Shown: positions 14,042 to 44,777 of the stretch, piece after piece | How the letters are laid out: every line of letters begins with the position of its first letter | How positions within the stretch are numbered: position 1 is the first letter of the stretch | Assembly: GCA_965225985.1 (NCBI GenBank) | Contig: OZ245330.1 | Coordinates: forward strand, 3,098,019 to 3,162,018 | DNA length: 64,000 bases | Direction of reading: 5' to 3' | Source of the DNA: a bacterium | GTDB taxonomy: Bacteria; UBA8248 | Program-made: the position numbers and the translations under genes | The notes under the pieces: model-generated | Told to the model about the DNA's origin: nothing | The model's database searches: none | Seen by the model: the letters and a program-made list of their open reading frames with translations, nothing else

Positions 14042-14056
14042 CGCCGGAAACAGAAA

Positions 14057-14506: not shown

Positions 14507-15879
14507 TAGAATTCATACCCCCCTATAAAGACTTGATGCGTCCCTGATGATCCTCGGTGGTACAACGCTTGAAATTCTGTGGGACAGTCACCGAGAACCG
14601 CTCCAGCATCCGTCGCGCTCGCATTTATATTGCGCCCGGCAGTACCAGCAAGCATAATTCCTCCCGCAGATTCGTGGCCGTCAGGAACGCCTGACACTGA
14701 GATCAACCTGTCCGCCGTTGAATGACCGCCGTGTAAATCTTTTAAGACCACAGGAACAGGCGGGATGAACGTACTTATATCGGCAAGGGTCGGGATGGTG
14801 GCGGTAGATGTGCCAAGTCCATAGCCCGCTACGGTATCCAACAAAAGACGAACATAGCGGGCCGCTTGAATAAATCCCTGAAGGTCGCTTCCGCTGTCGT
14901 TGTACACATAGCCGAGGAGCGCCGAGCCGTCGGCGTAGCCTGCGGGAAGGGAGAGCGCGGTCGGCGGGATGGTGACGAAGACCTTGAAAGCGAAATCATG
15001 CCCCGCGATATCGGACCAAGCTGTGCCGTTGTATGTCTTGGCGATTCCTGCCGCATAGCCCCCCGCCGAGTTGGAGCGCCAGACGATGTTGACCGTTGCG
15101 CTTGCCGTATAATCGCCCTGAAGGACAAGTGCGTAGGTAGTCCCAGCCGTCAGCGAGGCGGGCGAACGAAACGGAATGCGAATGAATCCAGACGATACAG
15201 GTAAAGCATCAACTTTAATTTTGTCTGAGGTGGCAAGGGGCGTCCCGTCCGGGTCGCCGCCGGAAAGCGCTTCGATGGTCGCCCAGATGCGGCCTGAGAC
15301 AGCAGCTTGACGAAAAAGTCTTATGTCAACGAATTCAACAAAACCGGTAGTGTCCGTATCGAAGGTTTGAGCCAACTTAACGTTAGTGGTCGCTCCCTCT
15401 CGAAGCTCCTGATTGGTATCGTTTGTGGTCTGCGTCTCATCCTCAAAGTACCGTTTCGCCTCCCGCCCGAGAAGGCCCTGCCCGGAGCTTCCCTTGCAAA
15501 GATAGACCTCCCACCACCTAGGTGCCGCCTCCGTCTCGCCGCTCATTTTTCCGTTGATGCCAGAAGCGGTGATGTCGAAGGTGAGGATGCTTGAAAGGGC
15601 GACGCGCTCACCGTTTGAGAGGATGGCCTGCGCGTTGTCCCCCGGGAGCATCTTAACCTTCACCGCCGCGCTGTCCTTATCTGGATCGGTGCGGAGAACG
15701 ATACCGTCAAACCCCGTGAGCCCCCGCAGGCCCAACGCCAGCAGCGAGGTGACCGCCGCCGCCTTATGGGTTCCGTCGGTGTTGTGTTCAACGACATCGA
15801 GGCGGTTCAGGGTGTCCGCTTTCGAGGGGTGGCCCGGCCCAACCATCTCCTCGGTGTACTGGATTCGCTGATCTGCCAT
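14506..15879 (-). CDS. Phage tail fibre / receptor-binding-like protein
   Basis: 457 aa. Gly/Thr/Ser-rich beta-like composition. Its position after the baseplate-like gene suggests a fibre. Lower GC. Confidence 0.55.
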   Translation of the reverse strand: MADQRIQYTEEMVGPGHPSKADTLNRLDVVEHNTDGTHKAAAVTSLLALGLRGLTGFDGIVLRTDPDKDSAAVKVKMLPGDNAQAILSNGERVALSSILTFDITASGINGKMSGETEAAPRWWEVYLCKGSSGQGLLGREAKRYFEDETQTTNDTNQELREGATTNVKLAQTFDTDTTGFVEFVDIRLFRQAAVSGRIWATIEALSGGDPDGTPLATSDKIKVDALPVSSGFIRIPFRSPASLTAGTTYALVLQGDYTASATVNIVWRSNSAGGYAAGIAKTYNGTAWSDIAGHDFAFKVFVTIPPTALSLPAGYADGSALLGYVYNDSGSDLQGFIQAARYVRLLLDTVAGYGLGTSTATIPTLADISTFIPPVPVVLKDLHGGHSTADRLISVSGVPDGHESAGGIMLAGTAGRNINASATDAGAVLGDCPTEFQALYHRGSSGTHQVFIGGYEF

Positions 15880-15890
15880 CTGCCTTTCTC

Positions 15891-17102
15891 CTAAGCGTAA
15901 ACGTTGAAATCGCGCCGTCCGCCGGCGAGGCTCCCGCCGTCCGCCGTCTCAGAGCCGTCCGCGAGGGCGGCCGCCGTCAAAAAGTACCCCGTGTCGCGGA
16001 TTCGGATCTCCATCGTCTGCTCCCTAAGGTCCCGCGCGATGGAGAGAATATCGCCGATCTGATTGGTGAGGGGTTCGAGCTCCTCCGTCCGCAACCAGGG
16101 AACCGAGAAGACGACATAATCGTGCGCCTCGGCCAACAGCGCCCGCCAGGTGGAATCACGGATGGTGAGGATCCGGCTCGGCGCCCCCATCCGCTCCACG
16201 ATCCGCCCCTGCACGGCGCGGGCGGTCGCCGACCCGCGGATCCATTCGAACTCGAGCCGCCCCCGCGCCGGGAGGCGCACCCCGTAGAGCGCCTGGGAGG
16301 CGGCGTCGAGGGTGGCCGCCCCGTCGTCGTGCTGGATGAAATCGGTTGTCTTTCCCGTAAAATTCCGGGAAAAGAGCGCCGGCACCTGGTTCACCACCCC
16401 CTCGCGGCTCGTCTCGCAAGAGACCGAGGCCGCCTCGAGGGAGGGGAGCGCCAGGGCGGGGCGGATCGCCCCCGCCTCCGGGCCCGCGATCCCCAGCCGG
16501 AGCCGCCCGCGCGGGTCCACCTCGTACCAGCCCAGAAAATCGGCCAGGATGCCCGTCAGCGCCTCGGCGGGCGCGCGATCGTCCGCGATCACCCCCGCCG
16601 CCAGGTAGCCGAGCCCCGCCGCCACCGCCCGCCCGAGCGCCACCTGATCCAGGTCCCGCGAGGTGTAGCCCCACACGTTCACCATTAAATCCTCGGCGAT
16701 CCGGGCGGGGTTTTCGATGAGGGCGCCCGAAGCGTCCTTTTCCCCCTTGCACACCGCCGTCACCTCGCCGTTCGGCACGGCGGAGAAGGCCGCCGTCGCG
16801 ATGACCCCCACCCCCTGGAAATCGTCTGCGAGGTTCAGGGTGTAGTCCCCCCCGGCGATGAGGCCGTCGTCGTCGAAAAGGCTCACCGCGCCCAGGGCGG
16901 CGTGCCCCGCCACGCAGTAGGTCCCCGCCCCCGCGGTGTCGATCTTGGGGAGTACGTAGACCCCCGCGTCGGTCCGGGCGGGCACCGTCAGATCCCCGTA
17001 GACGATGGGGAGCGCGTCCCCCCCGTTCCCGGGGGCGGCGTAGCGCGAGGCCCGCGCGATGCGGAAAGGGTCCGCCAGCCAGTCCTTCGTCAGATCCGCC
17101 AT
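15891..17102 (-). CDS. Phage tail / baseplate-associated protein
   Basis: 403-aa ORF with strong coding character between the fibre and tail genes. Confidence 0.5.
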   Translation of the reverse strand: MADLTKDWLADPFRIARASRYAAPGNGGDALPIVYGDLTVPARTDAGVYVLPKIDTAGAGTYCVAGHAALGAVSLFDDDGLIAGGDYTLNLADDFQGVGVIATAAFSAVPNGEVTAVCKGEKDASGALIENPARIAEDLMVNVWGYTSRDLDQVALGRAVAAGLGYLAAGVIADDRAPAEALTGILADFLGWYEVDPRGRLRLGIAGPEAGAIRPALALPSLEAASVSCETSREGVVNQVPALFSRNFTGKTTDFIQHDDGAATLDAASQALYGVRLPARGRLEFEWIRGSATARAVQGRIVERMGAPSRILTIRDSTWRALLAEAHDYVVFSVPWLRTEELEPLTNQIGDILSIARDLREQTMEIRIRDTGYFLTAAALADGSETADGGSLAGGRRDFNVYA

Positions 17103-17233
17103 GGGTCACCCCTCATCCTTTCACCCCTTTGCTCCCCCTCCCCGGCCCTCCCCCGGCGGGGGAGGGAGCCGTTCTCCTCCCCACTCCCCCCCCCCATCGG
17201 AGGGAGGAAGGGTTAGGGTGCCTTGGGGCGCCT

Positions 17234-17775
17234 TTACGCCCCCTCGCACTCGAGGACCACCGCCTCCCGGCGCTCGACCGCCCGCCGCACCGAGAAGGAG
17301 GCGAGCGGCATGACATCCTCCAGGTCACCGCCCGCGAAGGCGGCGTGGACCTCCACCCTTCCGCCCACGACGGGCTCCTGGGCCAGGATCCGGCCCATCC
17401 GGGGGTGGCCTTCAACGTCCGGCGCGTTCGAGAGGGTGAGCGCGAGGCCCGAGAGCTCCCCCTCGCGGAAGACATCGAGGGGGGATCCGCCCCCCTTGGC
17501 CCCCTCGGTGAAGGCCCCCCCCGTCCAGCACCCAGTCGTGGATCCCCAGGGGCACCTCCGAGCCCTCCCCCGCGAGGGCCTCCCCGTCCGCGGTCCACGC
17601 GCCGTCGGCGAAGCGGATTCCGCCCGAGGCCGCGACGAGGGCGTCCGCCGGCACCGTGCGGCAGAAAACGCGCAGCCCCGCCGCGCTCAAAAGGTGGAAG
17701 AGCACCAGGGCCCGCCGCCCCGCCCCGTGGGCCGAGAGGTCCGAGAAGGCCGCCTCGCTCGCGTGCCGCATGTCT
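17234..17775 (-). CDS. Phage hypothetical protein, apparently frameshifted at a poly-C/G run
   Basis: N-terminal part MRHASEAAFSDLSAHG...GIHDWVLDGGG continues in another frame as FTEGAKGGGSPLDVFREGELSGL...VVLECEGA*. The break is at the homopolymer near 17480-17525. Confidence 0.4.
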
Positions 17776-18862
17776 CCCCGCCCCCTAAGGAAAGCCGCTC
17801 GCGCAGCGTGAGCTCGAAGGCGTAGTCGTCCGGCCCCTCCTCGACCGGGGCGAAGCGCCCCTCCAGGCGCATGAGGAGGAGCGCCGCCGGATCGTCCACG
17901 TCCAGATGGGCGAAGAGCGACTTGTCCCGCTCGCCCGAAACGTCCTTCACCGCCCGGAACATGGCCTGGAAGAGGTCCCGCTGCGCCCCGGTCACGTGGC
18001 GGTAGGGAAGGAACGCCGCCTCCCCCCGGTTGAGGAGCACCGCCTTCTCCACCTTGCTCTCGGTCTCCTGGCGGATCTCGAAGGCCTCGTCCCCCCGCAC
18101 GTTCCCCCACTCGAAGGCGTAGTCGGGCTCGAAGTAGTCCCCCAGGTACACCTCCGAAACCTCGATGTAGCCGTCCGGGTTCCCCGAATCCCCCTCGATG
18201 AGGAGCCGCCAGTAGCGGTAGGTCTTGGTCGCGCTCGTGAGGTAGCGGTGCAGGGTCCCGGTGCGCCAGGCGATGGTCTCCTCCAGGGCGGGCGCGCCCC
18301 AGGCGTCCGCCGTGTTCCCCTGGATCTTCACCGTCCCCCCGGAGGAGATGTTGTGCCCGTAGACGGCGGCCGCCTTCACCTCCTGGGCGGAGCCGAGATC
18401 GAATACCAGGCTCTCCGGGTCCGAGGGAGTTCCCGAGCGCCAGGCCGTGTTGGGGTCCAGCTCGAAGGTCCGCTTCGCCGCGCGGAAGCGCGTCGCCGTC
18501 GCCTGCCAGCGGTCCCCCGCCTCGAAGGCCGGGGAGGAGGCGCCGTCCGAAAAGCGCACCCTCACCCCGTCGCCCAGGCTGGTGTCGGCCGCCGCGGTCG
18601 CCACCCCCGAGGCCTCCCAGGCCCCCGGGGCGGTCGCGGAGTTGCGCCACTTGAAGGTGGCCGCCCCGGTGTCCCCCGCCCCGTCGATCTCGACCGTGGT
18701 GAGGGAGGGATCGTTCCCGGTGTAGGTCCCCGAGAAGATCGCCGCGCCCGAGCCGTTCGCCACCCGGGGCACCGCCGCCCCGACGAAGCCCGCCGCCGTC
18801 GAGGAGGCCGTGATCGCCGTCCCCGTCCCGATCCGGTTCTGGTAGAGAAACCGGTGGCTCAT
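17687..18862 (-). CDS. Phage tail protein (hypothetical); the 3' end is uncertain
   Basis: 391-aa ORF. The last roughly 30 codons look out of frame and overlap the next gene, so the true stop is probably near 17790. Confidence 0.5.
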   Translation of the reverse strand: MSHRFLYQNRIGTGTAITASSTAAGFVGAAVPRVANGSGAAIFSGTYTGNDPSLTTVEIDGAGDTGAATFKWRNSATAPGAWEASGVATAAADTSLGDGVRVRFSDGASSPAFEAGDRWQATATRFRAAKRTFELDPNTAWRSGTPSDPESLVFDLGSAQEVKAAAVYGHNISSGGTVKIQGNTADAWGAPALEETIAWRTGTLHRYLTSATKTYRYWRLLIEGDSGNPDGYIEVSEVYLGDYFEPDYAFEWGNVRGDEAFEIRQETESKVEKAVLLNRGEAAFLPYRHVTGAQRDLFQAMFRAVKDVSGERDKSLFAHLDVDDPAALLLMRLEGRFAPVEEGPDDYAFELTLRERLSLGGGETCGTRARRPSRTSRPTGRGGGPWCSSTF

Positions 18863-18913
18863 GCCGTTCTCCTTTTTATTCCCTCACCCTGCCACTCCAA
18901 GCGGCAAGCCGCT

Positions 18914-19019
18914 CGGGGACCCCGCCTTCCCTCTCTCTGTCACCCCAAGCGCCAAGCCGCTCGGGGACCCCGCCTTCCCTATCCCTCGCCCCAAAAATAT
19001 CCGATTTTCGGGGACCCCG
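18914..19019. promoter_or_regulatory. Operator-like array: three copies of the palindrome CGGGGACCCCG spaced 47-48 bp apart, upstream of the tail gene that starts at 18862
   Basis: Exact palindromes at 18914-18924, 18962-18972 and 19009-19019. The first two sit in a 45-bp tandem duplication. The third sits inside TTTTCGGGGACCCCGAAAA, a perfect 19-nt palindrome. Confidence 0.5.
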
Positions 19020-19103
19020 AAAAGAACCAGGGAGAGGGTTTGACAGGGACGCAGGGAATTCTTCCCCGCACCCGCACAGGGCAATGTAAGAGAGGAGGAT
19101 GAA

Positions 19104-19126
19104 AAGCCAACTACCGGAAATTCGGG
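19104..19126 (+). repeat. Dispersed-repeat core copy (AGCCAACTACCGGAAATTCGGGG, then a duplicated AAATTCGG)
   Basis: Exact core. Further copies at 21614-21636 and 22304-22326 inside the tandem array. Confidence 0.7.
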
Positions 19127-19270
19127 GAAATTCGGAAAATTTTAAACGGGGAAAATCAGGCCGCGGGGGAGGGGTTCTCCCTGATGCGCCTGGCCGGAGC
19201 TCCCCCGCCCCGGGAGAGGGCTGGGGTGAGGGAAACTGCGCCTCGGCGACTTCAGTCCTTCCTGTTTTCC

Positions 19271-19495
19271 CTACTTGTTCGTGACCCTGACATCGAGTGT
19301 TGTGCCGGTGCTCTGAATTCCAATTGGCACGTATGCTAAATCAGGATTGATCCTTTCCCCGGCCACCCCGACAACATCCACCTGCATCACCCCCTGCGCG
19401 CCCAACCCCCCCGGCGCGAGCCAGGGGTTCAGCGCGATGAGCGTTAAGGCGAGGGCGATGACGGTCCAGACGACGTTCTGATATATCCCGCGCAT
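19271..19495 (-). CDS. Small membrane protein, copy 1 of the MRGIY family (constant N-terminal TM helix, variable C-terminus)
   Basis: MRGIYQNVVWTVIALALTLIALNPWLAPGG followed by a unique 40-aa tail. Confidence 0.55.
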   Translation of the reverse strand: MRGIYQNVVWTVIALALTLIALNPWLAPGGLGAQGVMQVDVVGVAGERINPDLAYVPIGIQSTGTTLDVRVTNK

Positions 19496-19833
19496 TTGAA
19501 TTCTCCTTTGGGATGGGCAGCGGAACTCGTTCTCACGCCCATTCTACCGCCATCCTTTCCGGCCGGTCCCCCTCCCTGCCCTCCCCCGAAGGGGGAGGGA
19601 AAAATGCTCCCCCTCCCCCCCGGGGGGGGGTTGGGGGAACCCCCAAAATCAAAGATTTTAGGGGGCCCCGGGGTGAGGGAAAAAATAACCCCCGCGCAGG
19701 GCATGGCCCGGAATGAAAGGCGCGAGGCGTTCAGAATTACATGAGGGGGGGGGGAATCCGGGATGCGGGGGAAGGAATTTCACCCTCTCCCCTTGGGAGA
19801 GGGTGAGGGGGATGAGGGGTGAGGGGAAAAATC

Positions 19834-21291
19834 CTACGCCCGCCCGAGGTCGATCCGCCGGGTGCGCCGGCGCTTCTCCTCGAGGAGGCGGAAGAGGCGC
19901 TCGACGCTCCGCTCGTCCGGGAGGAACGCCCCGCGCAGGTCCACGTTGTACGCCACCGAGCCCCCGCCGCCGGAAACGCCCGACCGCTTCAGCGCCCGCA
20001 CCATCACCTCGGTCATCATGCGCAGCCCGCGCTCGTCCTCGAGGGGAACGATGGCCTCGGCGCGGCCGCGCTCCCCCACGTTGAGCCGGGCGGGCCCCAG
20101 GGCGAACGCCCCGTGCTGTGCGCCGTCCCCGTCATCGATCCGGCTGGTAAGAAACGGCGCGAGGATCTTCCGCGCCGCTTGGCGGTTGCCCCCTGTTCGG
20201 CGTATCACTTCTTCAATCGACGGCCGGAAATTCGGATCGGAGGAACTTTGAACGTTCCCCGTCGCAGACAGTCCCGCCAGTTTTCCGAGCCTCGTGATCT
20301 CGGCGATGTTCGCCGCGCCGGACATCTCAGGCGTATTTTTTGGGGTATTCATCCGCTTGTTGAGGGCGAGGGCGAGTGCAGCCCCGCCCCCGAGAGCCGC
20401 CGCAGCGCCCGCGCCGCCCAGACCCGCGATGAGTCCAGCGGATGAACTCGTGCCCGCTGCCGCCGCACCCGCGCCCGCAGCGGCGGGCCCCCCCGCAGCC
20501 GCGCTCGCTGCTGCGCTTCCTCCGGCGGCTACAAAGCCAGCCTGACCGACGGCGGGAACTACGGTGGACGAAAGCCCCGCGCTCGCGCCGAACGTGGACG
20601 CTGCGGTCGCCCCGCCCCCGATTCCGAGCGCGCCCAAAGCGGCAGACCCGGCGGCGCTGACTCCTTTGCTCGCAACCTCCCCGAGCAACCCCCCGGTGCC
20701 GAGCGGAGAGCCTTTCACCTCAAGTCCCAGGGCGCGCTGCACCAGGTTGGCGAAGGGCGCGACGAGGCTCTGCTCCACGATCCCCGCCGCCATCTTCGCG
20801 AGGGCGCGCATGAAGGTGTCCTTCATGCTCCTGACGAACCTGTCCCACTGGGTCAGGAACTTGTCGGTGTTGTTCCGAAAGCGCACGAAGAGGAGGTCTG
20901 CCAAAGCCGCGTCCGTGCTTCTTGCAAATCCTTCGAACGCCTCCCTCGCCTTAACTGCCACGAACGTATTTTTGCGGAGGGCCTCTTCCGAGTCCCTCAG
21001 ATAATCTCCCATGGCGGTGCGGAGCTGCTCCAGGTGGCCCGTCTGATCTTTCGCCGCCTTGCCGGCTTCCACCGCTTTTTTGACGAATACACCGTGCGCC
21101 TCGGCCGCTTCCAGCAATCCTTTTCTCAAGGCGTCCGTGGACTCGGAAAGTTGCGCGAAATCCTTTGACGCTTTGCCGGTGTCCTTCCCCATCCTCCCGA
21201 GAAGCTTCAAGAGCTTTTTCAGCATCTCGGCGAGATTGCCACCACCATCAACGTTGACTTTTACACCGTTCATCCCGTTCGCCAAGACCAC
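19834..21291 (-). CDS. Phage tail tape-measure-like protein
   Basis: 485 aa. Helical N-terminus, a long Gly/Ala-rich central region and a C-terminal domain. It sits between tail-tube-side and baseplate-side genes. Confidence 0.55.
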   Translation of the reverse strand: MVLANGMNGVKVNVDGGGNLAEMLKKLLKLLGRMGKDTGKASKDFAQLSESTDALRKGLLEAAEAHGVFVKKAVEAGKAAKDQTGHLEQLRTAMGDYLRDSEEALRKNTFVAVKAREAFEGFARSTDAALADLLFVRFRNNTDKFLTQWDRFVRSMKDTFMRALAKMAAGIVEQSLVAPFANLVQRALGLEVKGSPLGTGGLLGEVASKGVSAAGSAALGALGIGGGATAASTFGASAGLSSTVVPAVGQAGFVAAGGSAAASAAAGGPAAAGAGAAAAGTSSSAGLIAGLGGAGAAAALGGGAALALALNKRMNTPKNTPEMSGAANIAEITRLGKLAGLSATGNVQSSSDPNFRPSIEEVIRRTGGNRQAARKILAPFLTSRIDDGDGAQHGAFALGPARLNVGERGRAEAIVPLEDERGLRMMTEVMVRALKRSGVSGGGGSVAYNVDLRGAFLPDERSVERLFRLLEEKRRRTRRIDLGRA

Positions 21292-21304
21292 TTCTCCTTA
21301 TTTG

Positions 21305-21490
21305 CTACCGCTCAACTTTAACGTGAATGGGTGTGGCAGAAGCAATTGACCTTCTACCTATTTTAGCGATATCCACCTCCATCACTCCCCGCGCACTTAA
21401 TCCCCCCGGCGCGAGCCAGGGGTTCAGCGCGATGAGGCTGAGGGCGAGGGCGATGACGGTCCAGACGATGTCCCGATAGATCCCGCGCAT
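21305..21490 (-). CDS. Small membrane protein, MRGIY family copy 2
   Basis: MRGIYRDIVWTVIALALSLIALNPWLAPGG followed by a unique tail. Its stop is 14 nt before the tape-measure start. Confidence 0.55.
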   Translation of the reverse strand: MRGIYRDIVWTVIALALSLIALNPWLAPGGLSARGVMEVDIAKIGRRSIASATPIHVKVER

Positions 21491-21653
21491 TGGAATTCTC
21501 CTTTTTGGATGGCGGTGTATGATTCATCGTTCGCCCATTCTACCGCCATCCGGCCCGCCCCGCCCGGGGTGGGCCGCCCGCCAACGTGGGAATCTATAAG
21601 AGGAGGATGAAAACCCAACTACCGGAAATTCGGGGAAATTTAAATGGGGAAAA

Positions 21654-21947
21654 TCAGGCCGCCAGGGGGAGGGACTTTTCGAGGGAGAAGCTGAATTGCC
21701 CGAGGAGGCTTACTTGTTTTTCCACCGAGTCGGAGGCTTCGCCGGTTTTTCGGCCGAATTTATTCTGTGCATCGGTTGCTTCCTTCAAGCCTTTTTTCAT
21801 CTCGTCCGTGGGCTTGATGATCTTCCGGATACTGTCCGCCGCGGTCTTTGCGCTGACCCCCGTTTGGTCGAGACTTTTGGTAAAATTTTTCAGTGACTTT
21901 GTCGCCTCGTCTCTTACTTTGACAGAAATTTCAATTCCATTTGCCAA
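21654..21947 (-). CDS. Truncated paralog (97 aa) of the tape-measure N-terminus
   Basis: MANGIEISVKV...KKGL aligns to the tape-measure N-terminus MVLANGMNGVKV...RKGL. It ends ...EKSLPLAA, just before a dispersed-repeat core. Confidence 0.45.
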   Translation of the reverse strand: MANGIEISVKVRDEATKSLKNFTKSLDQTGVSAKTAADSIRKIIKPTDEMKKGLKEATDAQNKFGRKTGEASDSVEKQVSLLGQFSFSLEKSLPLAA

Positions 21948-21972
21948 GACTGTCTCTCCTTAGACTCTCCTA

Positions 21973-22164
21973 TTACTTGCTTTCAATAACCACAACAGGA
22001 ATAGGTTCATAAGAAATGCCTTTACCGCCAACACTAACAATATCCACAGGAGTAATTATCCCCTGCGCACCCGACCCCCCCGGCGCGAGCCAGGGGTTCA
22101 GGGCGATCAGCGTTAAGGCGAGGGCGATGAAGGTCCAGACGACGTTCTGATAGATCCCGCGCAT
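21973..22164 (-). CDS. Small membrane protein, MRGIY family copy 3
   Basis: The internal ATG of ORF 21973..22275 is preceded by AAAGGAGAG and encodes MRGIYQNVVWTFIALALTLIALNPWLAPGG.... Confidence 0.55.
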   Translation of the reverse strand: MRGIYQNVVWTFIALALTLIALNPWLAPGGSGAQGIITPVDIVSVGGKGISYEPIPVVVIESK

Positions 22165-22354
22165 GATTGTTCTCTCCTTTTGGATGGGCGATGGAATGCG
22201 TTCTCTCAAAAACATTCTACCGCCATCCGGCCCGGCCCGCCCGGGGTGGCCGCCCCGGGGAGGCCCGCCCGCCAACGTGGGAATCTATAAGAGGAGGGAG
22301 GAAACCCAACTACCGGAAATTCGGGGAAATTCGGAGGGGTGCAGGAAGGAAAAC

Positions 22355-22624
22355 TTAGGCCGCGAGTGAGAGGGATTTTTCGAGATGCGCCTGGCCGGAG
22401 CTCCCTCTCCCCCCGGGAGAGGGCTGGGGTGAGGGAAACTGCGCCTTGGCCGCTACCTCCAATCCCTTCTTGAGGTCGGCCGTGGGCCTGATCATTTTCC
22501 GGAAGGACCCGGCCGCTTTTCGCGCGGACTTTTCCGTTTGATCGAGAGTTTTGCTGAAACCCTGGAGGGACTTGGCCGCCTCGCCCTTCACTTCGACATA
22601 AACCGCTACCTTATTTTCTGCCAA
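22355..22624 (-). CDS. Truncated paralog (89 aa) of the tape-measure N-terminus
   Basis: MAENKVAVYVEVKGEAAKSL...KKGL...EKSLSLAA, homologous to 21654..21947. Confidence 0.45.
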   Translation of the reverse strand: MAENKVAVYVEVKGEAAKSLQGFSKTLDQTEKSARKAAGSFRKMIRPTADLKKGLEVAAKAQFPSPQPSPGGRGSSGQAHLEKSLSLAA

Positions 22625-22679
22625 GACGGTTTCTCCTATTAAACACCAACCTCAATCATTTCATCATGAAAAGTTCCGA

Positions 22680-22862
22680 TTAATCCAAAACTCTAACAGG
22701 AATAGAAGCGCCTACTCTGAATCCGCTTATCCGAACAACATCCACCTTCACAATCTCCGACTGCGCACTCAAACCCCCCGGCGCGAGCCAGGGGTTCAGC
22801 GCGATCAGCGTTAAGGCGAGGGCGATGACGGTCCAGACGACGTTCTGATAGATCCCGCGCAT
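22680..22862 (-). CDS. Small membrane protein, MRGIY family copy 4
   Basis: MRGIYQNVVWTVIALALTLIALNPWLAPGG...VRVLD. Confidence 0.55.
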   Translation of the reverse strand: MRGIYQNVVWTVIALALTLIALNPWLAPGGLSAQSEIVKVDVVRISGFRVGASIPVRVLD

Positions 22863-22922
22863 GATTGTTCTCTCCTTTTGGATGGGCGATGGAATGCGTT
22901 CCCGCAAAACATTCTACCGCTT

Positions 22923-23488
22923 ATCCCTCCCCCTTGTGGCGGCGGAGGCCGGCGCCCCTCGGGGCGGCGCGGCGCTCGAGCTCGAGGCCGGCCTCGAGGG
23001 CTTCCTGGTTGAAGCGGAACTCCTCCCAGCTAGCCTCCGCCAGAAGGTGCGGGGGCAGGCCGTAGGTCTTCGCCTGGAGGTGGATCAGGGCGAGGAGCTC
23101 CCGCCGGGCCCGTCGGAAAGGGGGCGGGGGCCGCCTCTCCTCCCCCGGCGGCGAGGGCGCCCAACTCGCCCACGGCGGCGAGGATGGCGCCGGCGTCCTC
23201 GGCGGTGAGCTCGTGGACGCTGAGCTCGGCCGGGCCGCACGCGCCGGGCTCCTTGTCGGTCATGGCCCCGCGCTCGGGCAGGAAGCACCGGCGGAGGACG
23301 CAGTGCACCCAGTCCCCCATGGCGGCCGCCCGCCCGGCCGCGTCCTCCGCGGCGCCGTTCTGGCCGGCGGGCAGGAGGCGGGGGTAGGCGGCGAGGTCCA
23401 TCACGCTCGGGGCGCGGACGAAGCCCCGCAGCCCCGAGGGCAGCTCGATGGGCCTTCGGCCCCGGTTGCGGTAGGCGCTGATGTCCAT
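22923..23488 (-). CDS. Phage hypothetical protein (tail-assembly position), probably frameshifted
   Basis: The ATG is preceded by AAGGAG. The N-terminal frame (MDISAYRNRGRRPIELPSGLRGFV...) switches near 23090-23120 into ...ELLALIHLQAKTYGLPPHLLAEASWEEFRFNQEALEAGLELE...*. Confidence 0.4.
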
Positions 23489-23514
23489 GGCGGGATCTCC
23501 TTTTTCCATGACTG

Positions 23515-24651
23515 CTAGGTGAACTGGATCTGGATCTCGTCGTCCCCGGTGTTCCGCGCCATCGAGAAGGGGACCTCGTAGGTGAGGAGGCCGTCCCGGT
23601 CCCCGAGGCCGATGTCGCCGTACTGGCACTTGGGGGCGGTGACGGTGCAGATGTTCCCCGCCGCCTGGCCCACCTGGACGCTGAGGGCGAGCTGGTTCTG
23701 CGCCTCCCACTTGGCCCAGACGTCCTCGGTGGCCTTGAGGACGGCCTCGGGGTCGAACGAGCCCGCCGGGGCGCGGCCGGTGACGAGGGAGTTGATGTGC
23801 CCCCCGGTCTGGTTCGCGCTCCGGCGCAGGGCGACGGTGTTGTTCATCGAGAAGGTGATGGACGCCGCGTCGAAGTTGAACCCGCCGAAGGAGAAGGCCG
23901 CCACCAGGGCGGGCTCGGGAAGCTGGGCGTCGTAGGCGCTCCCGGCGACCAGGGAGGCGTCCGAGACCCGGAAGTCCGCCGCGGTGAACTCCCAGTCCAC
24001 CGTCGGGACGGCGTCGAGGGGGACGTTGAGGGTGAAGGTGCCCATGCAGCCCATGTAGAGGACGCGCAGGCCGTCGATGAAGGCCGTGACGGCGCAGCGG
24101 GTGAAGCTCGACTTGTCCGAGATGGGGGCGTAGGTGACCGAGGTGCCGCCCACGACGGTCTCGCTCATCCCGCACGCCTTGAAGAGGATGCCGTAGTCCG
24201 GCGCGGTGCCCGCCGCGCCCGAGCCGCGCAGCTCGGCGGTGAAGGAGATCCGCGCCGAGCGTCTTCCCGCGACGAAGGGGAAGGGCGAGAGGCTGTCGTC
24301 CCGCACCGCCCGCTCGAGGCGCTCGACCTCGAGGTCGTGCGAAAAATTCCCCGCCCGGAAGAGTTCCGCCGCCGGGGCGGGCCGCTCGAGGAGGTAGACC
24401 GTGGTCGAGTCGGGCACCGGGCTCAGGGTGCCCACCGTCAGGGTGTCGCTCGCCGCGTCGAAGTCGGTGACCGAGACCTACTGGCCCACCCCGACGCCCC
24501 GGATGGTGCGAAGGGTCGAGCCGTTCCAGAAATCGTCCGCCTCGGTGCGCGCCGCGTCCACGACGGTGGTGGCGGTGGCGCTGTCCATCGTTCCTTCCAA
24601 CTCCTCGGTCGCGCCGATGATCTGGCGCTCCATCAACAGGGTATCGCCCAT
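23515..24651 (-). pseudogene. Phage major tail (tube)-like protein interrupted by an in-frame TAG at 24478-24480
   Basis: MGDTLLMERQIIGATEEL...TIRGVGVGQ[TAG]VSVTDFDAASDTLTVGTLSPVP... continues in the same frame for another 306 codons. Confidence 0.5.
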
Positions 24652-24716
24652 CTCTTTGCCTCTCCCTTTCTTTTAGGAAAAATGCTCTCGTCCTTTGAAT
24701 GCGGCTCTCCCCGGCC

Positions 24717-25236
24717 TCACGCCCGGGTGATCCGCTCGAAGGCCTGGAGGCGGATCTCGGCGTAATGGCAGAGAACCCCCCCGAAGGCCCGCGGTTCGAT
24801 GACGTCCACCTGGGGCGGCTGAAGGCGCTCCAGGGTGGGGACCTTGCTTCGGAGCCGGAGGGCGTCGTTCGATCGGAAGCGGTCGCAGACCGCCTCGATG
24901 AGGTCCTGGAAGACGAGCTCGCTCGCCGCGCCGTCCTTCAGCCCCATGATCCCGGCGAGGAGGAAGGTGTGGGCCCGCCGGTTCACCCCCGCGGGGATGA
25001 GTCCGCCCGGGGCGCTCGCGCCGAATCCGCCGAGCGCCTCGCTCACCCGCTCGCGCGTGACGATCCAGCCGCGAATTTGATCCCCTCCGTCCGGCGCCTC
25101 CCAGCGGAACAGGCCGATGTACTTCGCCATGTCGGCGGCGGTCCGCTGGTAGAGGTGCACCCTTCCGGCGTTTTCCACCGCCTCGATTTCGGCGGCGACC
25201 GCCGCGCCGATATCCTTGTAGAATGAGCTAGCCACG
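24717..25236 (-). CDS. Phage head-tail joining / neck-region hypothetical protein
   Basis: GTG start overlaps the upstream stop (GTGGCTAG). 173 aa, VASSFYKDIGAAVAAEIEAV.... Confidence 0.45.
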
Positions 25237-25743
25237 CAGCCTCCCCGCGATGTCGGCGCCGAGCCTTTCCACCCGGCGCGCAATGGGCCCCATGCTTTTT
25301 TCGAGGGCGTCCCGGAACATGTGCCGGCCCGCGGTGCCCCTCCGCCCGATGGCGCGCGCGATGAGGAAGGCCGCCGAGCGGGCCTCCCCGCCGCTGACCC
25401 CCAGCACCCGCTCCACCCAGCCGTAGAGGGAGGAGCCGGGCCCCGAGGGGGGCCGCCGGCCCGGGCCGCGCCCCTCCTCGACGGGAAGGGCGTAGGCGAG
25501 CGGGGTGGCGACGGTGCCGCGAAGCGAATCGAGCGCGCTCCCGCGCACCTCGGATACGATCGAGCCCCGAAGCGCGCCCGTCGCCCCCCGGGGGGTACCG
25601 GCGGCGGCGCGTGCATGAATCATCTCCACGATGTCTCCCACGGCCCGCGCGGCCTCCTCGAAAACGACGCCCGCGGGATCGGCCCCATCGCCCGCGAGGG
25701 GGCCGGCCCGCTCAAAGGTGAGACTCCAATCTCCTTTCGCCAT
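25228..25743 (-). CDS. Phage hypothetical protein (head-tail connector region)
   Basis: 172 aa starting MAKGDWSLTFERAG.... It is the C-terminal segment of the long spurious ORF 25228..27276. Confidence 0.45.
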   Translation of the reverse strand: MAKGDWSLTFERAGPLAGDGADPAGVVFEEAARAVGDIVEMIHARAAAGTPRGATGALRGSIVSEVRGSALDSLRGTVATPLAYALPVEEGRGPGRRPPSGPGSSLYGWVERVLGVSGGEARSAAFLIARAIGRRGTAGRHMFRDALEKSMGPIARRVERLGADIAGRLRG

Positions 25744-25757
25744 TCCAGCCTCCCGCG

Positions 25758-26480
25758 CTAGCGCTCCCCGGGGCCGCCGTGGGTCAGGTACCGGCCCCGC
25801 CGCTGGGAGAGCGCCTCGTCCCAGTCGAGGGAGTGGCCCGCCGGGCCCGCCGTATCCCCCTCGCGCTGGCCGATGTGGGCCTGGTACTTGCGCTCGAGCT
25901 CCTTGGCGAGCCGGGTGTACTCGGACGCCTTGCTCGGGTAGCTCACCGCGTCCGCCCCGATGAGGGGCTCGGCGCTCTGGGCGAACCGCCGGGCGAGGAT
26001 GTGGCACCCTTCCGCCGCGGCGAGCCAGGCCGCCGCGATCAGGTCGTTCGCCGGGATGCTCGTTGCGGCGTCGTCCGCGGTGTGCGGCGCCGCGTAGAAG
26101 AGCCGCGCCGTCTCCCCGGTGCCGGGGGTGAGCCGCAGGAGGCGAAGCTTCGCCGCCGAGGTCGCCGCCCCGTAGATCGTCCAGTCCCGCCGCTGCAGGT
26201 AGACAGGCTCGCGCTCCCCCTGGGGGTACTCGACCGCGAGCACCGTCGAGAGGGCCGCGTCCCAATCCGCGGGCAGGCTGAAGTCGTACGCCGCACCGTC
26301 GCCGGCGTAGTCCTGAAAAGCCTTCCGCGGCCGGTCCTTGCTGTAGCGGGCGAGGGCCGCACGGACGAGGTCCGCGAAATCCGCCTCGGCCAGTGCGACC
26401 TCGGGCGGGATCTCGCCCGACTTCAAAAAGACCTTCACGTCCGCGATGATGGTTTGTCGTGATGACACTGCGTTCTCCAC
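25758..26480 (-). CDS. Phage hypothetical protein
   Basis: Clean 240-aa ORF (MENAVSSRQTIIADVKVFLKSG...). Confidence 0.55.
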   Translation of the reverse strand: MENAVSSRQTIIADVKVFLKSGEIPPEVALAEADFADLVRAALARYSKDRPRKAFQDYAGDGAAYDFSLPADWDAALSTVLAVEYPQGEREPVYLQRRDWTIYGAATSAAKLRLLRLTPGTGETARLFYAAPHTADDAATSIPANDLIAAAWLAAAEGCHILARRFAQSAEPLIGADAVSYPSKASEYTRLAKELERKYQAHIGQREGDTAGPAGHSLDWDEALSQRRGRYLTHGGPGER

Positions 26481-26513
26481 GGGACTGGGGCGGGGTAAAT
26501 TCCCCGCCCGCCC

Positions 26514-26808
26514 CTAGGTTTTGACCGCCAGCTTCGCCTCGAAAGTGAACGAGGGGCTCGACCCTCCGATGTCCCACGAGAGACGGAACCACTTCCCGAG
26601 GTTCGTCAGCTTGACGAGGGTCTTGCCCGTACCCGTGATTTGCGCCGGCTCGGTGTGGATGTAGCCGAGCGCGTCGTCCGCCGGCCCGGCTTCGATATCG
26701 AAATCGAGGGTGGGTGAACCGCCCGACGTCGAAGGGCGTGCTCTCGCCGTCCGCCGTCCGGGCCGCTGAGGCGGCCAATGTGATCGTCTTGGTCCTTCTG
26801 TCCGCCAT
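26514..26808 (-). CDS. Phage small structural protein, apparently frameshifted
   Basis: MADRRTKTITLAASAARTADGESTPFDV... shifts near 26735-26745 into ...PTLDFDIEAGPADDALGYIHTEPAQITGTGKTLVKLTNLGKWFRLSWDIGGSSPSFTFEAKLAVKT*. Confidence 0.4.
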
Positions 26809-26818
26809 GATCGGGCTC

Positions 26819-27099
26819 CTAGAAATCGAGGTAGAGCTTCGCGCCGGCCCCTGTGAGGACCGCGTGGAGCCCCACGCCGAAGCGGATGCCGCCCGGCGCC
26901 AGGTCCAGGCTCTTGGACACTCTCCGGCGGGCGCGTTGACGGCCCGCAGCACGGTGCCGGAGGCCGCCGTGTTGTCGTACAGCGTGACAGTGGCCGCCGC
27001 GCCGGAGCCCGCCGTGAGAATTCCGCCCATGAGCTTTCCGTTCCCCGTCGTCGCGGTGCCGGTGGCGGTAACCTCTGTCGTTTCGACTGGATGGATCAT
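26819..27099 (-). CDS. Phage small structural protein, apparently frameshifted
   Basis: MIHPVETTEVTATGTATTGNGKLMGGILTAGSGAAATVTLYDNTAASGTVLRAVNAPAGE... shifts near 26925-26935 into ...VSKSLDLAPGGIRFGVGLHAVLTGAGAKLYLDF*. Confidence 0.4.
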
Positions 27100-27145
27100 C
27101 GTGTACCTCCCTTTCCCGTTCTGGGCCGTCCCGGGCCGCCGCGGG

Positions 27146-27571
27146 CTAGTTGGGCGAGAATTCCACCGTGACCGCGAAGGGGGGCAGCGCCATTCCACTT
27201 CCCACCTGCTCGACCTGGAGTCCGAGCTGGTTTCCGGTGGAAACCGAGAGGGGGCTGGCCGGGCTGTAGAGGTCATAGCCCGCGACTCCGATGTCGTTTC
27301 CGCTCGTCAGGTCATAGTTCGCAAGCTCGGCCGCGCCGGCGCCGTTCGTCCCGCGGTCGATGAGATTCAGGTTCTTGGTGTTCGTGTTCTGGCCGGTGAC
27401 GGCCGCGCCGGGCACCACCCGAACCTTCTCGATCTTGCAATTCACCGGGGCTTCGAAAATCACGTAGGTGGTGCTGGCGTCCGCGGCGGCGGCGGCGGCG
27501 GCGGCGGCGGCCGGGGAGACGACCGTCTTGTCGTGGGTTCCCGGGACGTCGCAAGCCTGTCTGTTGCTCAT
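27146..27571 (-). CDS. Phage head-associated hypothetical protein (decoration-like)
   Basis: 141-aa ORF with an Ala-run and beta-rich composition. Preceded by a CCCCAAAAATCACAGATTTTGAGG element. Confidence 0.45.
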   Translation of the reverse strand: MSNRQACDVPGTHDKTVVSPAAAAAAAAAADASTTYVIFEAPVNCKIEKVRVVPGAAVTGQNTNTKNLNLIDRGTNGAGAAELANYDLTSGNDIGVAGYDLYSPASPLSVSTGNQLGLQVEQVGSGMALPPFAVTVEFSPN

Positions 27572-27696
27572 TTTTTTCTCCTTTCTCTAAACGGGTCGAA
27601 AAGAGACCCTTTCGCAGGGACGAGGGCCACCCCAAAAATCACAGATTTTGAGGACCCGGGGCACGCCTCGCCCCTGCGAGTTCAATTGACAATCGG

Positions 27697-29805
27697 TTAT
27701 GCCGGGGCGCCGCGGTAGAATCCCCGGTAGTCGAGGACCGCGCCGCCGTAGACGTGGCGGATCTTGTAGCGCACCTTGTCCGCGTTGAATCCGCTTCCGG
27801 CCAAGGGGTTGTCCTCGACGAAGAGCTCGGGATCCTGCATGTCCTCGAGGAAGCCGATTTCGACGGTGTCCACGAGCAGGGGATCCGCGGCGAGGTACCA
27901 GTTGTTCGCGTCGGTGAGCTCCGGCACCCATAGGGGCTCGACCCCGAGGCGGTTGATCACGCTCGGCTGGGTGGAGTTCTCCCCCGAGATGACTTTCACC
28001 GCGGACTGGGTGATGTCGAACGCCTCTTCGAGCAGCTCGGTCGGATGGAGCAGGTACTTCGGGTACACCTGAGAGGCCATCTCGACCCCCGACTCGCCGT
28101 AAAACGTTTGCTGGCCCATCGACTTGATGCCGGTGATGACGTTTGCGTAGGTGAGCACGTTGGTCGATGTGTTGTTGTGGTTGGCGTGGAAGAGCGCCAC
28201 GCCGTCGTAGATGTTGGTGGCCGAGGCGAGGAACCCGAAGACGAAGTTGTTCAGGGTCCGCTGGGCCGCGCGCGCGAGGCGGCGCGGGATCAACCGGATG
28301 GATCCCATGTCGTCGTTCTGGATCATCTCCCAGGTGAGGTCCTCGATCCCGCCGCGCTTCGAAACCGCGTAGGTCACCTCCTCGTCGGTGGGCGAGGCGA
28401 GGGTGGGATAGGTGGCCTGCTCGGAAACCGCCTGCAGGTCGCCGTAGCCGCCCACCCGGATGCGGCGGTTGGTGCGGAAATCCTTCACCGGCACGATGGC
28501 CGAGACGATCTTCCGCCAAAGCTGAAAGCGGTCGTCGCGGAAATCGCGGAGGAGGGCCCGCCGGATCGAGTCGCCGAACGCCTCCCCCCAGGTGCTGGTG
28601 TCGAGCGCGGCTGAGAGCCGGCGGATGCCGTTCCAATTCTCGGCGGCCCGGTGGTAGTGAAAGGTCTCGGCGAAGAACAGATGTGGCGTAAGCCGGTGGC
28701 CGGTGAAGTCCTGGAAGGCCTCGCCCAGGAAGCGATAGGGCCGGTGGCCGTCCCGGACCGTCGGGCTGGACTCCCAAAGGCCGTCCAGTGCCGCCTTCTT
28801 CCGATCAATCTCGTCCCGGACCACCTCGGCCCGCCGCCCAAAGCCCTTCAGCGCCCCGCTCGCGGTGAGCTTCTCCAGGGCGGACGACTCCAGCCGCAGC
28901 GCCTCGTCGATCTCCTCTCCGGAGCACACGCGGCCGGTGAACTGGGTCCGGACCTTTTCCTTGACGGGCTCGGGAAGGGGAGACTCCGCGAGCCGGCAGG
29001 TGAGCCGGTCCCGGCTCTCCGCAGCACGCAACGACTCCTGCAGACTTCCGATTTCCTGTTGCATCGCTTCCTCCTCACTTTGGATCAGATGGGGATTTTC
29101 GTTTTCCATGGCGTCTCCTTTCTGCGCGAGATCCGAATCGAGGCCCGCTCTCTCGCAGGCCGAGATCAGCTGCTGCCGCGTCCATCTCCCGCCGAGTCTG
29201 GCGGCGGCCTCCGGTACGGCCGCCCTGAGTTTTCTGAACAATTTCTCCATCGCCACCACCTCTGTATCCGGCCGATCGGCCGCGGCGAGGTCCAGGAGGC
29301 CGCCCCCCAGCCGGCCCTTGTGGACCACGTCCACCGAATTGACCGCAACGATTTTTTGAAAATGCAGAACGAGGCCCCCCTCCTCCTCCCGGTACTCTGT
29401 CTGGGCCACCACATCGAAAGAAAAACCGAAGGGCTCCTCGATCCCGCGCGCGAGGGCGTCCTGGGCCAGGGCCTGGAACCAGCCGGCCGACCGGGCCACG
29501 GCGAAGGTGCTGTGGAGGTCCGATTCGACCATCCGCACGTTCCGGTGCCAGCCGACGAGGGCGCGGATGTCGGGCGCGCCGCCCTCGGCGTGATTCGCGA
29601 ACGCCTGCGCCCCCTCGAAAAGGGGCGCGGCCTCGCGGAGCACCTCCCGGGACAGGAACCAGCGCCCCTCGTGCGAGTAGCCGGGAGTTGCGATCCGCAC
29701 CTCGAAATCCCACGGTGTGTTGTCCGGGGCGGCGCCGGAGGGGACGCCCGCGGCCCGGAGAACCCGGCCCGTGAGCCGCAACCCCCGCTTTTCGCCCGGG
29801 GGCAT
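27697..29805 (-). CDS. Phage prohead protease / scaffold / major head subunit fusion (Mu gpT-like C-terminus)
   Basis: The long ORF runs to 30051, but the Arg-rich N-terminal stretch looks non-coding, so the start is probably the internal M at about 29805. Protease-like N-terminus (PWDFEVRIATPGYSHEGRW), coiled-coil middle, and a C-terminus ending ...KVRYKIRHVYGGAVLDYRGFYRG, typical of Mu-like major head proteins. Confidence 0.55.
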   Translation of the reverse strand: MPPGEKRGLRLTGRVLRAAGVPSGAAPDNTPWDFEVRIATPGYSHEGRWFLSREVLREAAPLFEGAQAFANHAEGGAPDIRALVGWHRNVRMVESDLHSTFAVARSAGWFQALAQDALARGIEEPFGFSFDVVAQTEYREEEGGLVLHFQKIVAVNSVDVVHKGRLGGGLLDLAAADRPDTEVVAMEKLFRKLRAAVPEAAARLGGRWTRQQLISACERAGLDSDLAQKGDAMENENPHLIQSEEEAMQQEIGSLQESLRAAESRDRLTCRLAESPLPEPVKEKVRTQFTGRVCSGEEIDEALRLESSALEKLTASGALKGFGRRAEVVRDEIDRKKAALDGLWESSPTVRDGHRPYRFLGEAFQDFTGHRLTPHLFFAETFHYHRAAENWNGIRRLSAALDTSTWGEAFGDSIRRALLRDFRDDRFQLWRKIVSAIVPVKDFRTNRRIRVGGYGDLQAVSEQATYPTLASPTDEEVTYAVSKRGGIEDLTWEMIQNDDMGSIRLIPRRLARAAQRTLNNFVFGFLASATNIYDGVALFHANHNNTSTNVLTYANVITGIKSMGQQTFYGESGVEMASQVYPKYLLHPTELLEEAFDITQSAVKVISGENSTQPSVINRLGVEPLWVPELTDANNWYLAADPLLVDTVEIGFLEDMQDPELFVEDNPLAGSGFNADKVRYKIRHVYGGAVLDYRGFYRGAPA

Positions 29806-30092
29806 TCCCCGGCCGGGGCCTTTGTTGGCCCCCGTTGCTGCGGGGAACAGGGGGGAGCGCGCCAAGCGCTTTCTTCCGGCTCTGAGAAATCGGTTCAACA
29901 CGGGTTTCTCTCCTCTCTTTCCTTTTGCTTCTCTCCCATCAGGGCGTTCGGGCGCCGCGACGGGTTCCCATTTCCCGGATCTTCCGGCCCGCCGCGGAAG
30001 GCCCTTTCGACCGACTCCCGCGGGGAGGGAAAAACCCGTGCGGCCGGCCACCCCGGCCGCGCGAGGAGGAATCTAAATGAAAAAGGGACTGG

Positions 30093-31297: not shown

Positions 31298-31315
31298 GCC
31301 GCCGGCCCGCGCCGC

Positions 31316-44716: not shown

Positions 44717-44777
44717 CCTCCCCGGGGAGGCACTTCGCGCCGCTCCCCGGGAGGGAGTCTAGGGCCGGGGCCCCGGA

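Follow-up and report, generated by a model that had tools for sequence, protein, structure and literature searches.

Why would a phage tail module hold four intact copies of one small gene, each with the same beginning and its own ending, next to truncated pieces of its tape measure gene? The question is raised by a 64,000-nt stretch of a UBA8248 bacterial genome (assembly GCA_965225985.1, contig OZ245330.1, positions 3,098,019 to 3,162,018 of the forward strand), hereafter the window, in which an earlier note, made from the letters alone, had pointed to an array of small membrane-protein genes at positions 19099 to 22930. Our comparisons indicate that the four genes encode diverged alleles of one protein family, that in this clade the gene of the family sits between the genes for a tail assembly chaperone and a tape measure protein (TMP), and that whole modules were probably stacked at this joint before the extra TMP genes were cut down. 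As for function, we tentatively favor, at somewhat less than an even chance, an envelope-located exclusion factor that would be analogous and not homologous to gp15 of phage HK97, with the array widening its specificity.

Four small genes with a common leader

Small genes A to D (Table 1) start at 22862, 22164, 21490 and 19495 on the minus strand, where the earlier note had placed them, with start-to-start distances of 698, 674 and 1995 nt. Each is preceded by the common leader GGATGGCGGTAGAATG...AAAGGAGA. The note had put the identity of the first 30 or so codons at about 95%, which is right for the pairs A/B, A/D and B/D but too high for pairs with C (86–90%), giving a range of 86–95% nucleotide identity over codons 1 to 33. 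As it reported, the sequences then part abruptly after a homopolymer run: divergence starts just past the G-run GCGCCGGGGGG, and the codon-aligned tails beyond it are 48–57% identical at the nucleotide level. All four open reading frames (ORFs) are intact, each keeping its start, its Shine-Dalgarno (SD) sequence, its -10-like box and every motif that defines the family.

An assembly artefact was ruled out by the occurrence of the same array elsewhere. L009, an independent assembly with a 1.59-Mb contig, is colinear with positions 23600 to 18801 of the window at ~99% identity and holds the four genes and both TMP stubs described below, and three further loci (L010, L011 and L001) reproduce parts of the array.

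A protein family with a predicted export signal and homologous tails

A word-indexed search for the family returned only 9 clusters, and an exhaustive profile search returned 166 representatives at E ≤ 1e-3 (50% clustering), the distant members coming from metagenome-assembled genomes (MAGs) of Tectomicrobia and Nitrospinota. Very distant members occur outside tail modules, for example adjoining TrkA/TrkH. The family architecture consists of a short positive N-terminus, then a conserved hydrophobic helix (YTKxxLTVIAxAL...), an AxA-like site and a beta-rich tail (27–41 residues in the four proteins of the window), in which a loop of variable length separates the motifs V-x-V-[DN]-I-x-x-V-x-G and [LI]-P-V-x-V. 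No match to the family was found in Pfam, PHROG, PADLOC, NCBIfam or PDB. Searches of viral contigs with the small family gave no matches either, nor did tblastn of one family member against 50,697 deposited phages.

The earlier note described the four tails as unrelated, and this description did not hold. The tails share the register Q/R-G-x-[IVM]-x-VD[VI]...P[IV]x[IV] and score 16–27 bits against a hidden Markov model (HMM) built from the tails alone of 80 distant members. With 500 shuffles per tail, none reached the real score and the maximum was 9.7 bits. Because the real scores lie far above those of the shuffles, unrelated tails were ruled out, and we read the four tails as diverged homologous alleles of one mini-domain.

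AlphaFold, run with 9 and then with 34 sequences, models residues 4 to 26 as a confident helix (predicted local distance difference test, pLDDT, 85–94). The note had called this a single transmembrane helix; the hydrophobic helix is there, but it may be a cleavable signal peptide. Ala is found at -1, and A, V, L, S, T or I at -3, in 75/75 members in which both landmarks could be placed. The N-terminal region is net positive, and in half of the 75 the helix start and the AxA site are separated by the same fixed distance. The pattern of a Sec signal peptide with an SPase I site (positive n-region, h-region of 12–15 residues, helix breaker and the residues at -3 and -1) occurs in all 75. It is therefore possible that the constant N-terminus is a Sec signal peptide that is cleaved off, which would leave the tail as the whole mature periplasmic peptide, although the strong conservation of the helix could instead indicate an uncleaved anchor. 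None of the four proteins has a Cys or a lipobox, and the conserved site is AxA rather than L-x-x-C; the lack of Cys ruled out a lipoprotein like Ltp.

Small proteins at L025, L027–L031 and L007 share only the N-terminal anchor of the family (YTRVVLTVIAVALTVIAVRPW...AQAQ), followed by an unrelated conserved C-terminal domain of ~55 aa (PRYEVAVPKDWGKFVAFSNNNLLLEAPDKSLRIVDVEGK...). Since the same anchor occurs with an unrelated domain, the leader seems to be a reusable module.

With a signal-peptide-like N-terminus, a conserved AxA and a short variable mature part, the proteins might have some other envelope or secreted function. They could be holin/antiholin-like lysis regulators, or secreted signal or toxin peptides in which the leader would serve as secretion signal and the variable mature peptide would set specificity. 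Many secreted peptide families combine a conserved leader with a variable core, and the cluster yielded no identifiable lysis genes. However, the C-terminal part is a conserved mini-domain over the 166 representatives and not a free-form peptide, the proteins have no Cys or lipobox, and no receptor, processing or modification genes adjoin them. A holin would normally adjoin an endolysin, and the strict position at the chaperone/TMP junction would be left unexplained. We consider a function of this kind very unlikely.

Tape measure stubs and the stacking of modules

The only full-length TMP gene of the array follows small gene C. Its start is probably the TTG at 21285, which fits the ribosome-binding site and TTG of the stubs. 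The full-length TMP has no Pfam or PHROG match, and weak TMP-family matches come from the paralogous stubs only. Those stubs are the 89- and 97-aa genes that the earlier note had recognized as homologous to the TMP N-terminus, and both do end in EKSL(S/P)LAA directly 5′ of GAATTTCCGGTAGTTGG.

The junctions in these pieces record how they arose. In units A and D and in unit 1 of L002, TMP codons ~51–62 run to GGCGCA(G) and then into TTTCCCTCACCCC..., which is normally the sequence 3′ of the TMP stop codon; beyond it, all three extend through the post-TMP segment to the 17-mer. The stub A junction, GGCGCAG/TTTCCCTCACCCC, is therefore common to unit D and L002 unit 1. The junction in unit B differs, which argues for an independent deletion there and for at least two independent TMP deletions altogether. 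These deletions extend up to the flanks of the small genes and never into them. In L009, stub B carries in addition a 1-nt deletion in an A-run, which is a frameshift.

We interpret the TMP pieces as deletion stubs of stacked full modules. The shared and independent junctions, together with the duplicated GGGGGAGC around unit D, suggest that modules of related elements, each made up of -10 box, small gene, TMP gene, post-TMP hairpin region and 17-mer, would have been stacked whole by recombination. The redundant TMP copies would then have been cut by deletion to stubs, every small gene being left intact. The earlier note had argued for recombination and against duplication followed by decay. 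Recombination is borne out by the mosaic breakpoints and by the copy numbers of 1, 2 and 4 described next, but the deletion stubs of the TMP gene do not fit the second half of that argument.

Copy number and mosaicism in related loci

At clade loci with usable flanks, the small gene always lies 3′ of the chaperone gene and 5′ of the TMP gene or a TMP fragment. Copy number varies among relatives: L003, L004, L018 and L021 have a single copy, L002 and three Tectomicrobia loci (L008, L019 and L020) have two, and the window and L009 have four. Single-copy L003 is without unit D and has the order chaperone, small gene, TMP, hairpin-rich spacer, 17-mer and 391-aa gene. The Tectomicrobia loci, from a lineage that is ~47% identical, have the order small gene, truncated 264-aa TMP, small gene and full TMP. 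In Nitrospinota loci the chaperone and the small gene are present, but neither a TMP gene nor a tube gene could be detected.

Four loci of the Nitrospinota type (L005, L015, L016 and L017), 99.8–99.9% identical, have a fused 231-aa G-T chaperone ORF, one small gene and a TATAAT box. The sequence 3′ of their small gene starts TMP-like (MSVPKSNANTVSINITSDVK...) and then departs, and there is no tube gene.

In the distantly related loci L039–L043, which belong to the same tube family (29–34% tube identity), the TMP gene comes straight after the chaperone genes, and there is no match to the small-protein family between chaperone and TMP at E < 0.01. Because phages of this tube family can be without the small gene, it appears to be an accessory, moron-like insertion between chaperone and TMP.

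L002, L003 and L004 are ~94% identical to the window, and in them homology is lost at window position 22735, shortly after the constant N-terminus, and is regained at 20116, within the TMP gene. TMP residues ~390–485 are 96% conserved with L003, while residues 1–390 are replaced. Given these two breakpoints, the small-protein tail and TMP residues 1–390 appear to behave as one exchangeable mosaic cassette. To this extent the cassette exchange proposed in the earlier note is upheld. What is exchanged, however, is homologous alleles and not unrelated cassettes, and no machinery for programmed cassette switching was found: there are no inverted repeats in the array, no reverse transcriptase (RT) was seen among 30 window ORFs scanned, and the changes in L002 are not adenine-specific.

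Joint exchange of tail and TMP raises the possibility that the small protein aids its own tape measure, for example by holding the Gly/Ala-rich segment at the membrane or by helping tail assembly, in which case only small gene C would matter and the others would be leftovers of stacking. In the clade the gene is always directly 5′ of a TMP gene or stub (19–55 nt, no terminator), tail and TMP residues 1–390 are swapped jointly between the window and L003, and stacked units always hold both genes. Nevertheless, phages of the same tube family make tails without such a gene, the Nitrospinota loci have the small gene and no detectable TMP, and distant members adjoin host genes such as TrkA/TrkH. 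The pairing is not strict, since L002 has near-identical tails beside two TMP N-terminal types. Tail assembly takes place in the cytoplasm, whereas the small protein has a predicted export signal, and the extra TMPs were deleted whereas the extra small genes were not. A partnership with the TMP is therefore unlikely in our judgment.

The array could also be a neutral by-product of recent unequal or illegitimate recombination at repeats (the constant leader and the 17-mer), its extra genes being functionless and intact because they are short and young. The repeated 17-mers and the ~150-nt constant segment are suitable recombination substrates, and the TMP stubs, one of them frameshifted in L009, show duplication followed by decay at this very locus. 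L009, the sole independent full-length four-copy array, is ~99% identical to the window, which leaves little time for decay. Against such an origin, four ORFs keep start, SD, -10 box and all family motifs, and deletions reach the flanks of the small genes but never enter them. Stacking in which the small genes are kept and the upstream TMP is truncated recurs in the distant L008, L019 and L020. The 48–57% nucleotide identity of the tails, moreover, argues that the alleles are old and that each has been maintained somewhere. We regard a purely neutral origin as improbable, to about the same degree as a TMP partnership.

Diversification of the tails

The two copies in L002, a recent duplicate pair, are identical in leader and gene except for 2 synonymous codons and a 5-codon non-synonymous block (codons 46–51) in the loop. 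Between the window and L009, all amino-acid changes in the small genes fall in the tails, in numbers too small for a selection test. The G+C content at third codon positions (GC3) is 0.88–0.91 in the constant part, 0.26–0.64 in the tails and 0.86–0.98 in neighboring genes and backbone. This drop is found in every phage-borne lineage and is absent from a chromosomal member. Judged by base composition, a criterion for morons, the tails are moron-like and the constant part is backbone-like.

A diversity-generating retroelement was rejected as the source of the variation: there is no RT among the scanned ORFs and no template repeat, and the loop changes in L002 involve all bases. No second copy of any tail was found in the 17–25 kb region or in the window.

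Expression signals and a dispersed 17-mer

Across 14 leaders the sequence GGTA(G/T)AAT is nearly invariant 40–47 nt 5′ of the ATG, in lineages that share only ~47% protein identity. From this conservation we infer a putative -10 box, which would be an expression signal of the small gene's own. The conserved leaders have no recognizable -35 element. A conserved hairpin in the 5′ untranslated region was also considered and rejected, as RNAalifold gives no consensus structure for the 14-leader alignment; by eye, the leaders contain the short stems GAATG/CATTC, GGGGAA/TTCCCC and GGTGAA/TTCACC.

A "dispersed-repeat core" had been reported beside the stubs. It is present, but it is not specific to the array. 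The 17-mer GAATTTCCGGTAGTTGG occurs 11 times in the window (0.16 expected), always on the minus strand and six times among host genes, at positions 19107, 21615, 22306, 30094, 32825, 35687, 36408, 42081, 44780, 55697 and 58850. Each copy is followed 16–18 nt later by TAnnnT or CAGGCT, and copies lie 5′ of the portal, capsid, distal tail and terminase-fragment genes as well as among host genes. We call the element promoter-like because of its dispersion, constant orientation and fixed spacing. Only loci from the lineage of the window have it. We take it for a probable promoter or regulator site that is specific to this lineage and does not belong to the gene family. No canonical sigma-70 promoter was called; the 17-mer/TAnnnT element scored 8/12, under the tool threshold.

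Four of the copies (32720–32841, 35580–35703, 36300–36424 and 41975–42097) have a further conserved downstream segment of ~100 nt, ctttctccgagcctgggctaggctcccccggtagcggggctgcgcggggcgtttgcgcctttgcggcccgg, which could be a common leader or a small RNA; an Rfam scan of the window gave it no match.

A possible role in superinfection exclusion

The proposal that we tentatively favor is that the small protein would reside at the inner membrane, either within it or just on its outer side, and prevent related phages from bringing in their genomes by the TMP-dependent route (superinfection exclusion), each tail variant providing a different specificity. The earlier note had guessed at immunity or superinfection exclusion, and the guess stands insofar as no better analogy than HK97 gp15 is available. 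That protein resides in the inner membrane and excludes incoming phages in a way that depends on their tail and TMP (PMC3594210; PMC10883804). In both cases the gene lies between a frameshifted chaperone (GT) gene and the TMP gene, the protein is short (62 aa for gp15, 60–74 aa here) with an N-terminal hydrophobic helix, the gene is accessory with respect to related phages, and there are relatives outside phages from which the C-terminal part differs. The N-terminus of gp15 resembles YebO; for 8 + 34 members of our family there was no match to YebO or any other Pfam entry. The C-terminus of gp15 is charged and helical-looking, whereas the proteins described here are beta-rich after the AxA site. 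HK97 has an annotated terminator between gene 15 and the TMP gene and we find none, and its gene is single-copy whereas here there are arrays of 2–4 diverged copies with TMP stubs.

Other exclusion proteins offer more distant parallels. Phages escape exclusion by Ltp of phage TP-J34 through changes in the TMP, and exclusion by SieA of P22 through changes in the ejection proteins, so that the injection conduit is the target, according to PMC10883804 and, by its title as given in PMC3952083, Bebeacua 2013. Both are small prophage-encoded envelope proteins, as we predict for the family here, and both block DNA injection. They are encoded in the lysogeny region rather than the tail operon, searches showed no homology, and Ltp is a lipoprotein whereas our proteins have neither Cys nor lipobox. 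Tab (JBD26) and Tai are prophage morons, small accessory late-operon proteins that block tail assembly with a specificity that maps to the TMP (PMC10884400). Tab is encoded between terminase genes and acts on assembly in the cytoplasm, and Tai genes lie 5′ of the packaging module, in contrast to a family with a predicted export signal at the chaperone/TMP junction.

In layout the array also resembles systems of contact-dependent inhibition (CDI; cdiA-CT/cdiI) and Rhs orphan arrays. These have an abrupt boundary between constant and variable parts, displaced stacked modules in which a fragment of a large gene lies beside an intact small one, and copy numbers that differ from strain to strain. 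The locus here shares the abrupt boundary, the stacked fragment with intact small gene and the copy-number variation. The proteins and biology are different, however, and the fragment at our locus is an N-terminal piece of the large gene that lies 5′ of the intact copy. The comparison concerns layout and does not imply a toxin-immunity relationship.

Several lines of evidence are consistent with an exclusion function. The position, size and topology are those of HK97 gp15. Small genes were kept while TMP copies were lost, and the pattern recurs in the Tectomicrobia lineage. The small gene appears accessory, with a -10-like box of its own and a predicted export signal, and in Nitrospinota it occurs without a detectable TMP. 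Variability is focused on the loop, composition breaks within the gene, and there are relatives outside tail modules, as with gp15 and YebO. From these data we infer export or cleavage, promoter activity, exclusion and specificity alike.

A further set of observations weighs against an exclusion array. The family has no homology to any known exclusion protein, including gp15 itself (hhalign probability 0.1%), the function being proposed by analogy, and AlphaFold models the tail with low confidence (pLDDT 55–60). A consensus promoter scan called nothing in 18700–23600, and no terminator or hairpin separates the small gene from the start of the TMP gene or stub (19–55 nt). Without a terminator the small gene would not be a self-contained moron, and a transcript from the -10 box would read into the TMP gene. 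The element looks defective: with a terminase fragment and with no integrase or repressor among the scanned ORFs, expression in the prophage state cannot be argued from context. Linkage of tail and TMP is breakable, as the near-identical tails beside two TMP N-terminal types in L002 show, and with the window and L009 only ~1% apart, the intact extra copies may be merely young.

We speculate further that the locus is a repertoire of exclusion specificities. Modules of mini-protein and TMP would have been captured from rivals by recombination at conserved joints. Each mini-protein would have been kept to block, from the periplasm, the TMP-mediated DNA entry of the rival it came from, and the TMP discarded. 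The TMP stubs would in that case be traces left by earlier captures, much like orphan immunity arrays of CDI and Rhs systems, and the low GC3 and hypervariable loop would be the outcome of an arms race where peptide and TMP meet. This extension of the exclusion proposal is, in our view, doubtful.

The surrounding phage-derived element

All genes relevant to the array are on the minus strand and belong to a siphovirus-type structural module. The second-frame extension of the chaperone gene is kept in L008 (80-aa ORF) and fused in frame in L005. We take it as a GT-like frameshift product in the usual G/GT arrangement; the chaperone itself has no Pfam or PHROG match. Beyond the TMP gene lie distal tail genes of 391, 403 and 457 aa, the first of which is present in all related loci. 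Its leader (18879–18974) contains a 48-nt tandem duplication with copies 90% identical, where L003 has one copy.

The post-TMP spacer (19555–19833) contains many homopolymer runs of C or G and many nested hairpins (for example 19570–19640, -54 kcal/mol, z = -2.8), and L009 has a 44-nt insertion in it relative to the window. GC-rich hairpins are confined to the sequence 3′ of the stubs and of the TMP gene. Intrinsic terminators 3′ of the stubs were considered and rejected: the unit A hairpin does not outscore shuffled sequence, and the post-TMP hairpin in Table 1 alone is significant.

Phage-like genes are limited to the part of the window from about 14 to 33 kb and are bordered on both sides by host genes, namely F420 biosynthesis, PmbA/TldD and GAF-SpoIIE genes on one flank and an M20 peptidase, adenylate cyclase-STAND proteins, ornithine cyclodeaminase and a major facilitator superfamily (MFS) transporter on the other. 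Of the large terminase there is an N-terminal fragment only (44716–44120, 11 kb from the portal gene), and no integrase, repressor or lysis genes were seen among the window ORFs scanned. Given the terminase fragment, the host flanks and the narrow phage-like span, the element is a degraded or domesticated prophage and not obviously a complete phage. The phage-like cluster (14000–33000 and 42200–44720) contains structural genes only, with a fully host-like GC3; it is a grounded prophage or, possibly, an element akin to a gene transfer agent (GTA), domesticated for particle production.

Two paralogous ORFs of 156 and 170 aa (35755–36225 and 42237–42749, minus strand), each just 3′ of a 17-mer copy, match the C-terminal part of phrog_5982 / phrog_20458 (unknown function). 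Between the phage remnants sit two plus-strand genes (36481–39822 and 47421–48617) for proteins with zinc ribbon, adenylate/guanylate cyclase and AAA_16 domains, the larger with TPR repeats and STAND-like. Rfam and tRNA scans of the window gave no matches.

Table 1. Positions of the array and of neighboring features in the window.
Feature	Position	Strand	Basis or remark
Small gene A, 60 aa; signal/anchor helix, AxA and beta-rich tail	22680..22862	-	Identical in L009; D41G in L010 (P0004)
Small gene B, 63 aa	21973..22164	-	T38A in L009
Small gene C, 61 aa; directly 5′ of the sole full-length TMP gene	21305..21490	-	R46G and A50T in L009
Small gene D, 74 aa; between TMP gene and downstream promoter-like element	19271..19495	-	Insert bordered by duplicated GGGGGAGC
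-10-like box TAGAAT, unit A; directly 3′ of chaperone stop	22911..22916	-	Conserved leader box
Equivalent -10-like boxes	22214-22219 (B), 21537-21542 (C), 19541-19546 (D)	-	Conserved leader box
Full-length TMP gene, 485 aa from GTG	19834..21291	-	Position 3′ of chaperone; coiled-coil N-terminus, Gly/Ala-rich hydrophobic center
TMP stub A, 89-aa ORF; ~62 TMP N-terminal codons fused to normally non-coding post-TMP sequence	22355..22624	-	TMP N-terminus homology
TMP stub B, 97-aa ORF	21654..21947	-	TMP N-terminus homology; deletion junction unlike that of stub A
33-nt remnant of TMP codons ~55-65; directly 3′ of small gene D stop	19237..19269	-	Repeat family D7, alignment A8; post-TMP join is the stub A junction
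12-bp perfect GC-rich hairpin, 27 nt past TMP stop; terminator-like without U-tract	19780..19806	-	Minimum free energy -24 kcal/mol, z = -3.5 vs shuffles
17-mer, interval of units A/B; TAGATT 18 nt downstream	22306..22322	-	Promoter-like dispersed element
17-mer, interval of units B/C	21615..21631	-	Promoter-like element
17-mer 5′ of 391-aa tail gene	19107..19123	-	Same position in single-copy relatives
Tail assembly chaperone; G-like ORF 23509-23030 and second-frame extension to TAA 22923-22921	22921..23509	-	Two-frame translations
Tail tube gene, 306 aa; upstream anchor of the locus	23515..24435	-	Pfam Phage_tube_2 E=1.1e-15; phrog_290 E=3e-22
391-aa tail gene, 3′ of the array	17687..18862	-	phrog_8610 E=8.6e-15; weak F5/8 type C-like match
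Protease-capsid fusion gene	30051-27697	-	Pfam Phage_capsid_4
Portal gene	32707-31316	-	phrog_10963

Implications

If the exclusion proposal is right, these proteins would be a second, unrelated family in the chaperone/TMP "moron slot" of HK97 gp15, in uncultivated high-GC lineages, and to our knowledge no earlier case exists in which such moron-slot genes are stacked as a multi-allele array. It would also suggest that blocking the TMP conduit is a general, evolvable means of excluding siphophages and that module capture can widen its specificity. Whatever their function, the small genes define an unannotated family of ~60–80-aa proteins with predicted export, a compositional break within the gene and a hypervariable loop, and the locus is a clear example of mosaic joints and deletion stubs that record a history of recombination.

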